Part shown: positions 28,690 through 29,979 of the stretch, one piece after another
Layout of the letters: the number at the start of each line of letters is the position of its first letter
Numbering within the stretch: the stretch's first letter is position 1
Source: a virus
Lineage: Duplodnaviria > Heunggongvirae > Uroviricota > Caudoviricetes
Virus record (IMG/VR): IMGVR_UViG_2974578479_000001
Span: 64,001 to 128,000 of that record
Reading direction: 5' to 3' (one strand)
Length of the DNA: 64,000 nucleotides
Position numbers and translations under genes: made by a program
The notes under the pieces: generated by a model
What the model was told of the DNA's origin: nothing
Database searches by the model: none
What the model saw: the letters and a program-made list of their open reading frames with translations, nothing else

Positions 28690-28947
28690 ATGAACGATGT
28701 ATATTATCGTATTATCCGTTCATACGAGGATGATGAACTACTTCGAGTAGTAACTATGCAAGATTTTGATGAATATGATTATGACCATAGTCGTTTTCTA
28801 TGTGCTAAAGGAACAAATGAACGTTTACAATTTAGTACTGAAGAAAAAGCTATCAAATTCTTAAATGATAATATCAATCTAGAAAATATTGATCCAGAGT
28901 TTAGGGTAAAGACTCAGAATTATAATGACAAATTCTATAAAGATTGA
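28690..28947 (+). CDS. Hypothetical protein
   Basis: GAGG RBS before ATG 28690. Confidence 0.65.
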   Translation: MNDVYYRIIRSYEDDELLRVVTMQDFDEYDYDHSRFLCAKGTNERLQFSTEEKAIKFLNDNINLENIDPEFRVKTQNYNDKFYKD

Positions 28948-28952
28948 AATAA

Positions 28953-28982
28953 GTGAAACACATTAAAAAAATGTGGTATAAT
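28953..28982 (+). promoter_or_regulatory. Promoter, TGAAAC/TGGTATAAT class
   Basis: GTGAAA-18 bp-TATAAT with GTGG extension. Confidence 0.65.
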
Positions 28983-28983
28983 A

Positions 28984-29452
28984 TGTATGAAGACCTGAAA
29001 AGGTACTTCATACAACTCTGATTGATCCGTTTTACGGAATAGTTTAAGCCTGACCTCGTTGAAAATGTAAACAGCAGATGAGTAGTTCAATCAGTACGAG
29101 TGCAAAAGAAACCCGTTAGGAGATGGCATAGTTTGTACCACCCACGGCAATGCGGCACTATAAATACGTCCTTGATATGAACGTACTAGATAGACATATG
29201 AGATGCATACTCACCTATTAAAAGGGAGATATTCTACGGAATATCAATAGTATTTGTTGCTGAATTAGCGAGTACTATATGCGAAGGAATGAGAAATCTT
29301 CGACCGTTGTATGCGACTGTAGTAACTGGAAACCGGACAACCCGCCAGTGTAGCTACAAATATTAGACAATATAGATCCGTCTAAAATTTGAGTTAATCT
29401 ACAAATTCAGAGGTAAGACTACCACCGTCAGATATTATTCTGACTTTTTTTT
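28984..29452 (+). ncRNA. Candidate large structured non-coding RNA (unassigned)
   Basis: No ORF; promoter upstream; many helices including GAAA and cUACGg tetraloop hairpins; terminator hairpin plus T8 at 29427-29452. Confidence 0.55.
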
Positions 29453-29604
29453 CGTTCCCCTGTTGCGGGGGGATGCAAATGGATCAACAAACCCCGTCAG
29501 TATAATAGTATTGAACGTACTTAAATACATTGATGATGAATGGAAATTATTCGAGTTCGTCAGAACGAGAAGAATTGAACATTCTTGACTAACGGAGTTA
29601 GGCA

Positions 29605-29979
29605 ATGACCCTTTCAGAAAACAAGTACTTCGAACAGATTATGACAAAGTACTTTTTAATATTAATTGAGCAAGACCTGTATCAATACAGGGGAAATACA
29701 TTATTCATAGATAAATCATCTCAGGATGATAGAACTCTTGGCATTTATAATGCTATGTGTGATATGGCATATATTGGTGAAAATATTGTATGTGTTAATT
29801 TTGATAAAGCATTTCCAATTAAACACTTGGATAAATTGCACTTTTTTATTGGAAATAATGCATATTACTTAAATCCAGTGCCATGTGATTTTTTGTTTAT
29901 TTTTGACGCAGTAAAAAATCGTGAGGAATTAAATAAAATCATTAATTTTTACAATCCTAAATTTATTTTTTACTGCTAG
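29605..29979 (+). CDS. Hypothetical protein
   Basis: GGAG upstream; ORF track. Confidence 0.6.
   Translation: MTLSENKYFEQIMTKYFLILIEQDLYQYRGNTLFIDKSSQDDRTLGIYNAMCDMAYIGENIVCVNFDKAFPIKHLDKLHFFIGNNAYYLNPVPCDFLFIFDAVKNREELNKIINFYNPKFIFYC

Follow-up and report, generated by a model that had tools for sequence, protein, structure and literature searches.

A predicted pseudoknotted RNA encoded at five fixed places in Rak2-like jumbo phage genomes and carried by bacterial islands

The orphan ornate RNAs ROOL, GOLLD and OLE are multi-helix, pseudoknotted non-coding RNAs with near-invariant loops, which are carried by phages and integrated elements and to which no function has been assigned. Another point of comparison is RNA II of the plasmid ColE1, a structured transcript of about 0.5 kb that is made from a sigma70 promoter and needs no element-encoded protein. 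A third is offered by oriF and oriG of phage T4, where several promoter-driven sites are spread round a large genome; we know of no conserved structured RNA that these T4 origins have in common and, to our knowledge, origins of this type need no elaborate RNA fold. Four ORF-free, promoter-distal ncRNAs of 0.24-0.62 kb (ncRNA001-004) were defined by RNA-seq in PA5oct, a jumbo phage that belongs to the wider clade as a distant relative, and two of the four are highly transcribed throughout infection (PMC7318152).

The locus considered here lies in a window of 64,000 nucleotides, i.e., positions 64,001 to 128,000 of the IMG/VR virus record IMGVR_UViG_2974578479_000001, a phage genome of 357,154 bp. 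An earlier note, made from the letters of this window, had proposed that it encodes a large structured RNA of the phage, transcribed from a dedicated promoter and ended by a dedicated terminator. This proposal has held up: both signals were found by scan, the covariation is strong and no ORF is conserved. However, what the note treated as a single element is one of five paralogues per genome, with further copies in bacterial islands. In kind, ROOL, GOLLD and OLE appear to be its nearest analogues, in that the present RNA, at 0.45-0.6 kb, shares with them the multiple helices, the pseudoknots, the near-invariant loops, the carriage by both phages and integrated elements, and the lack of an assigned function. 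In contrast to them, it gives no sequence or structure match in Rfam 15, occurs as five dispersed, fixed-place paralogues per genome, and has the enterobacterial Rak2-like jumbo phages as its host range.

The intergenic gap and its predicted transcript

The ORF-free gap seen earlier at 28948-29604 of the window is real: the ORFs found from the stop codon at 28947 up to the ATG at 29605 measure no more than 25-56 aa, and they are broken in orthologues of about 90% identity. Specifically, each of the three ORFs tested within the RNA (at least 25 aa) meets stops or frameshifts in such orthologues, and the nucleotide blocks of the RNA are conserved whatever the reading frame. Deposited CDSs of 30-65 aa sit inside the homologous gap of some phages; small hypothetical CDSs are thus found within the RNA gene of fHe-Yen9-03 (g162 and g163, at L011:1844-1948 and 2030-2146), Kaldavass (L015:1837-2162) and Hallingskeid (L051:564-960). 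Given the broken frames in the orthologues and the frame-independent conservation of nucleotides, CDSs annotated within the RNA gene are probably spurious.

Directly upstream of the RNA, on the + strand, we found a sigma70-type promoter (28953-28982), which comprises GTGAAA, an 18-nt spacer and the extended -10 element TGgTATAAT. At the other end lies an intrinsic terminator (29427-29452, + strand), in which the stem GUCAGA-uauuau-UCUGAC (29427-29444) is followed by U8 (T8 in the DNA). The promoter layout (A/G)TGAAAC...TGGTATAAT also stands ahead of the paralogues and the island copies. Moreover, the promoter region (the first 45 nt of the query; 28947-28984) matches about 12 other places in the phage genome, which indicates that it is a common promoter type in this phage. 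The (A/G)TGAAAC...TGGTATAAT region is probably the early promoter consensus of the phage; the island copies show the same layout with TATACT as the -10 element. Judging from these signals, 28953-29452 is a predicted transcription unit whose non-coding product has a length of about 440 nt (about 510 nt upon read-through of the terminator) and would be transcribed along the + strand by the host sigma70 RNA polymerase from a phage promoter of the early type. For 28984-29452, folding yields a minimum free energy of -125.8 kcal/mol, with z = -5.0 against dinucleotide shuffles; the minus strand of the same stretch gives z = -4.1.

The absence of a recognizable family signature, remarked upon previously, is borne out by the searches. 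The whole window has no match in Rfam 15 at the gathering thresholds (the models for ROOL, GOLLD, OLE, HEARO, RNase P, tmRNA, 6S and the group I and II introns included), and, with E-values of up to 10 admitted, 28800-29750 gives only chance-level matches (E = 1.3-6.9) that lie far below the thresholds. Likewise, ARAGORN detects neither a tRNA nor a tmRNA in the window, and searches of the literature on jumbo-phage ncRNAs and structured RNAs yielded no description of this RNA family. Nor do the near-invariant blocks contain complementarity of at least 8 nt to the 16S, 23S and 5S rRNAs or tRNA-Glu of E. coli (shuffled blocks give a mean of 0.66). The predicted pseudoknotted RNA is a family absent from Rfam and from the literature searched.

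The fold and the conserved tail

The comparison of homologues predicts a fold of about 14 helices arranged around single-stranded blocks that are near-invariant; two pseudoknots and a small closing stem lock the helices together. All of its elements lie on the + strand of the window. After a 5' leader hairpin (28985-29013), the RNA enters a 5' junction domain (29018-29097), which is composed of P1 (29018-25 with 29087-94), the P2 hairpin (29026-38), the P3 hairpin (29050-77; loop GAAAAUGUA) and a 3-bp stem (29082-84 with 29095-97) that closes over the 3' strand of P1. Within the P4 domain (29099-29159; AGUGC/GCACU) lie the conserved GCAAAAGAAACCCGU, P5 (CCGU/ACGG), CACGGCAAUGCGGC and a variable tip, which is mosaic among the paralogues. 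This domain is followed by P6 (29166-29185), a variable hairpin in which all pairs covary, and by a stretch (29186-29228) that combines the conserved junction CUAGAUAGACAUAU with P7 (29199-202 with 29210-13), the trinucleotide ACC and the near-invariant AAGGGAG. Next come the covarying hairpin GAUAUUC-uacg-GAAUAUC (29228-29245), a hairpin (29247-29278) whose loop CUGAAUU (29260-66) supplies the 5' strand of the second pseudoknot (PK2), and the P8 hairpin (29282-29302), which was obtained with RNAalifold.

The pseudoknotted core (29301-29411) contains the near-invariant CGACCGUUG and brings together P9 (29318-22 with 29399-403), P10 (29325-29 with 29345-49), an inserted hairpin (29363-85) and both pseudoknots: PK1 pairs GUUGU (29306-10) with ACAAC (29337-41), which lies in the P10 loop GAAAC..CAACCCGC, while PK2 joins the above-mentioned hairpin loop to its 3' strand AAUUCAG (29404-10), which lies in the core. 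The final hairpin ahead of the terminator, H13 (29412-29431), reads GGUA-agac-UACC in this copy and GACGA...UCGUC in other classes, and ends in the motif CCGUCAG (motif 1). The near-invariant blocks between the helices are CACGGCAAUG, GAUAGACAUAU, AAGGGAG, CGACCGUUG, CAACCCGC and GGGGGAU.

A check of covariation in collected homologues, as suggested in the earlier note, strongly favors this fold. From 30 sequences, RNAalifold predicted 73 pairs, 41 of which show compensatory changes on both sides. With 53 distinct sequences and the nested structure, 92.2% of the pair cells are standard, as against 33-43% in controls where the 3' partner was slid by 1-3 columns, and the covariation score is 0.50, as against about 0.1 in the slid controls. 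Similarly, both-side changes occur in 63 of 99 pairs in these 53 sequences versus 34-42 in the controls, when counted per sequence rather than per evolutionary event. PK1, PK2 and the 3-bp stem emerged from an all-against-all pair scan together with a helix scan. PK1 is 100% standard, and one of its pairs switches between U-A (26 sequences) and C-G (27 sequences). For PK2 the figure is 98.7%; five of its seven pairs show at least three pair types, and there are class-specific versions such as GUCGAAU/AUUCGAC, AUUGUAU/AUACAAU and UUCAUGU/ACAUGAA. There are also G-U pairs on the + strand, for example between CUGUUUGA and UCAAGCAG. Thus, pairs are maintained through compensatory changes beyond what the controls show, as is the case for structured non-coding RNAs, and the compensatory changes in more than 60 pairs, the one-strand G-U pairs and the covarying pseudoknots can be read as signs of selection acting on an RNA.

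Most of the stems drawn earlier from the single sequence proved right, although two had to be re-assigned and the pseudoknots had been missed. P1 shows AU/CG/UA/UG covariation; the TCCGT/ACGGA stem is recovered by RNAalifold, ACTGG/CCAGT (29325-29, 29345-49) by both RNAalifold and the helix scan, and the hairpin at 29228-45 is likewise confirmed. The leader hairpin is genuine and displays compensatory changes among orthologues, but it is limited to the copies of class A. The TTAGAC/GTCTAA hairpin is plausible, but it belongs to a module whose presence here is confined to classes A and B and the island copies. In contrast, TGTAG (29318-22), which had been paired with the CTACA at 29354-58, is matched by covariation to the distal CTACA at 29399-29403, and the AATTTG/CAAATT stem finds no support, its bases belonging to the 3' strand of P9 and to PK2. 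The TATAAATA at 29159, which had been singled out inside the RNA, is the conserved RNA junction UAUAAAG and not a conserved late promoter.

As for the extent of the element, the terminator at the 3' end of 28984-29452 stands, but the conserved unit does not stop there: conservation continues past T8 to about 29502-29520, weakening toward ~29520. The conserved 3' module (29456-29502, + strand) consists of the hairpin P12, here C4...G6, then GGGGGGAUG, a stretch rich in A, CAACAAAC and motif 2 (CCGUCAG, 29494-29500), which is a second copy of the motif in the 3' strand of H13. The same order, namely the P12 hairpin (C4-5...G6), GGGGGGAUG, the A-rich stretch, CAACAAAUC and the second H13 3'-strand motif, is observed in the family as a whole. 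A terminator hairpin with a U-run follows H13 in classes A, B and D, and a U-rich tract only in classes C and E. Motifs 1 and 2 are direct repeats that change together: most copies have CGUCA in both, whereas two have UGUCA, two island copies have CGACA, and RaK2 has CUUCA. The tail is conserved in sequence, and the helix scan gave no supported helix between it and the rest of the RNA. We considered whether the tail is a general promoter motif of the phage and rejected this, as ATCTCGTCAGTA is present solely at the RNA copies. A separate motif, ACGAAGTGA, is seen just 3' of several copies (genome positions 175092, 259372 and 335838, i.e., 50-60 nt after copies D, B and C); it has five sites in the whole phage genome, is followed by a -35 element of the TTGAC(A/T) type, and is also found at the RaK2 loci L146, L148 and L150. 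Copies B and D have about 90 nt of downstream sequence in common.

Copies in jumbo phages and in bacterial islands

The phage genome contains five copies of the RNA, all on the + strand, at about 30.3, 92.9 (the copy described above), 174.4, 258.7 and 335.3 kb. They are separated by 62.7, 81.5, 84.3, 76.5 and 52.1 kb; by our own formula, five points placed at random on a circle would show so large a smallest gap with a chance of about 0.005. The region under study is about 99% identical to the corresponding region in the Erwinia phages pEa_SNUABM_12, 19, 44, 49 and 50. Beyond these close relatives, five copies at matching places are found in each of fHe-Yen9-03 (Yersinia), GAP32 (Cronobacter), XbC2 (Xanthomonas), CBB (Pectobacterium) and Kaldavass (Erwinia); EJP2, Munch and XaC1 also have five, and four were found in 121Q and Hallingskeid. 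Thus, syntenic copies occur in at least 11 related jumbo phages, with five copies in six genomes and four or five in five more. A covariance model of the 5' domain (R1), whose E-values are rough, additionally recovers at least three copies each in RaK2 and K64-1, and has no match in PA5oct (whole genome), Atu_ph07 and XacN1. The PA5oct ncRNAs were hence rejected as homologues: the nhmmer family profile does not match ncRNA001, 002 or 004, and R1 finds nothing genome-wide, so that the likeness is one of ORF-free ncRNA regions in a distant relative. A strict pattern scan of IMG/VR returned 46 matches, up to five per contig; the contigs concerned are jumbo-phage contigs of 350-370 kb and shorter ones of 23-174 kb.

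In a phylogenetic tree, the class A copies of different genera group together, as do those of class E, which implies that the paralogy is older than these genera; at the same time, the mosaic peripheral domains point to occasional exchange between copies. Each paralogue class has kept its own features at its own place over a long evolutionary time. The picture drawn by these comparisons is of a predicted RNA that is one of five old paralogous genes, each of which Rak2-like jumbo phages keep at a syntenic place. At all five copies the ORFs on either side are complete and unrelated to one another, and no protein is common to the surroundings of the five. Some of these neighbors deserve mention in their own right. 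The ORF directly after copy B (genome 259377-260369), which begins ...SNNLDRSIGALVGLAVGDALG, resembles by eye what we take to be an ADP-ribosylglycohydrolase; tblastn shows no similarity between it and the ADP-ribosylglycohydrolase that is found next to DarT in the islands described below. Adjoining copy D on the minus strand is a 160-aa ORF (genome 173919-174401; contains ...LDHNHKGEQECR), which, again by eye, we presume to be an HNH or endonuclease VII-like gene, and XaC1 has an annotated HNH endonuclease beside one of its RNA copies.

When the same pattern was run against 185,579 species genomes, it matched nine places, eight of which are homologues. These come from Serratia, Silvania, Enterobacter, Buttiauxella and further Enterobacteriaceae, and from a MAG contig labelled Clostridium. 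This contig (DPOH01000171.1, 2.8 kb, 'Clostridium sp.'), whose island-type copy is almost the same as those of the Enterobacteriaceae, is probably mis-binned. There is a single RNA copy per bacterial genome, and a BLAST-level search for the island copy in 400 other Enterobacterales genomes found none. The island copies are full-length and have retained the promoter layout and the 3' module. At five of the eight loci, the RNA copy lies 400-700 bp downstream of an integrase of the tyrosine or large serine type, and at five loci or more, a gene for a CI-type HTH-S24 repressor is convergent on it, with the 3' end of this gene turned towards the RNA. Where the cargo was read further, it includes a Cro-like protein, an invertase or resolvase, DarT, an ADP-ribosylglycohydrolase and a UvrD-like helicase, and the islands are often inserted beside rimO. 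Rfam matches at these loci are confined to unrelated neighbors (His leader, TPP riboswitch and STnc450).

The chromosomes of Enterobacter chinensis (L139:9764-19801) and Silvania hatchlandensis (L140) illustrate the organization, with an integrative island of about 10 kb adjoining rimO. In order, it encodes a large serine recombinase, one RNA copy, a CI-like S24 repressor, an HTH_35 protein, a 286-aa protein of no recognized kind, an LprI-like protein, a resolvase, a 561-aa ADP-ribosylglycohydrolase, DarT and a UvrD-like helicase. From its gene content, this looks like a mobile DarT-type defense island. In tblastn searches, none of 18 island proteins matches the phage genome at E 0.01, and no replication initiator is recognizable in the islands where the gene content was read. 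The island copies are nested among the phage copies in the tree, which indicates that the unit was transferred as a whole.

What the RNA might do

We lean, with some reserve, towards the explanation that the RNA itself is the active product, operating alone or with conserved host components and without a dedicated phage or island protein. The independence from a dedicated protein is suggested by the movement of the whole unit, promoter included, into islands in which no protein in common with the phage could be detected, and the presence of five genes behind strong promoters suggests a high dose of the RNA early in infection. Briefly, the host sigma70 RNA polymerase would transcribe the five RNA genes early in infection; the high dose would be in keeping with a stable RNA particle of the ROOL/GOLLD sort, be it a scaffold, decoy or ribozyme, and the RNA would act by itself or together with conserved host factors. 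This explanation has its difficulties. The fixed features and places of the classes, along with the even spacing, fit better with a cis-acting, position-dependent role than with redundant trans-acting genes, and the strongly conserved module after the terminator is left unexplained by a trans-acting RNA that ends at it. Nor did a target emerge when the near-invariant blocks were compared with the E. coli rRNAs and tRNA-Glu.

It is on these points that the main alternative gains ground, which we hold to be doubtful, namely that the copies specify the primer RNA of R-loop replication origins, a structured pre-primer made by the host RNA polymerase as are ColE1 RNA II or the transcripts of T4 oriF and oriG. 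The RNA would stay hybridized to its template at the G6/A-rich 3' module and prime leading-strand synthesis, with five spaced origins serving the 357-kb genome; the island copy would imitate an origin, so that the island could be replicated with no initiator of its own or upon phage infection. The five co-oriented copies with gaps of 52-84 kb, more even than expected by chance, would suit such a role, as would the retention of position and copy number across genera with each class at its own place, the extension of the conserved unit beyond the terminator, and the want of both a common protein of islands and phage and a recognizable initiator in the former. There is also a resemblance to the ColE1 origin junction near the 3' end, at the level of motifs: UCGUCAG, G6 and AUG(G)AAAA blocks follow in the same order, ColE1 having GAUG-CUCGUCAG-GGGGGG-(8 nt)-AUGGAAAAA at 528-560 nt of RNA II, which we take to be the place of the primer-to-DNA transition, and the present family (C/A)UCGUCAG, then G6, then AUGAAAA. 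The composite pattern (UCGUCAG, G6, AUGRAAA) does not occur in 401 Enterobacterales genomes and is thus rare, but it is not diagnostic; the likeness was noticed after the fact, and there is no alignable homology to ColE1, the nhmmer family profile giving a 33-nt match elsewhere on the plasmid (E = 0.16). Further, classes A, B and D, three of the five, have an intrinsic terminator ahead of the G6 block, and GC skew tracks gene orientation without an origin-like switch at the five sites, AT skew being equally uninformative. The T4 origins, which the earlier note had named as its alternative, are comparable in their number and dispersal on a T4-related genome; in contrast to them, the covarying fold is the main feature here, and a core of two pseudoknots with near-invariant loops exceeds the known requirements of priming. 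We consider unlikely the fuller proposal that the five copies represent a new type of RNA-primed origin, in which the pseudoknotted pre-primer would set the G6/A-rich junction as a persistent R-loop, and that small defense islands copied one of them so as to be amplified, or to compete for the replisome, upon infection by a jumbo phage.

The proximity of genes invites a different cis-acting account, that of a leader or attenuator whose fold controls read-through of the terminator into the genes downstream. Four of the five copies have + strand genes 40-140 nt downstream, the terminator is part of the conserved unit, and the co-changing direct repeats of motifs 1 and 2 could permit alternative pairings. 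Yet copy D is not followed by a + strand ORF of at least 60 aa, the next such ORFs being convergent on the minus strand; the genes downstream of the different copies are mutually unrelated; the island RNA faces the 3' end of a repressor gene; and 440 nt with pseudoknots is far above the known size of attenuators, all of which makes this account improbable. Lower still do we rate a DNA-level repeat, i.e., a recombination, packaging or protein-binding site with an incidental transcript, which is very improbable: dispersed, co-oriented copies at fixed positions, the exchange evident in the mosaic peripheral domains and a 3' tail conserved in sequence without supported pairing would be in keeping with it, but more than 60 compensated pairs, G-U pairs on one strand and covarying pseudoknots, together with a promoter and a terminator that bracket the unit, argue for selection on a transcript. 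Finally, we give hardly any credence to small protein genes or to a self-splicing intron or mobile ribozyme. The former could appeal to the CDSs deposited in the homologous gap of other phages, but their frames are interrupted even in near-identical orthologues, as detailed above; the latter could appeal to the group I introns that T4-like phages carry, but no exon context is apparent at any of the five copies, where the promoter adjoins the RNA and the genes on either side are intact and unrelated, and the intron and ribozyme models of Rfam give no match. Moreover, the synteny of all copies across genera implies that the element is not actively mobile.

It is rare for a large RNA to have so much conserved tertiary structure. 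Apart from rRNA, RNase P, introns and tmRNA, we are aware of only a handful, and the majority of these have proved to be ribozymes or RNA assemblies of an unusual kind. In the present case, five fixed-place genes for one such RNA are maintained throughout a clade of giant phages, and bacterial defense islands have acquired the same unit. If the RNA is a trans-acting machine, giant phages would be manipulating an undescribed host process by RNA alone. If it is instead a structured origin primer, this would explain how the replication of 350-kb phage genomes starts and would bring to light a mimicry of origins by defense islands.
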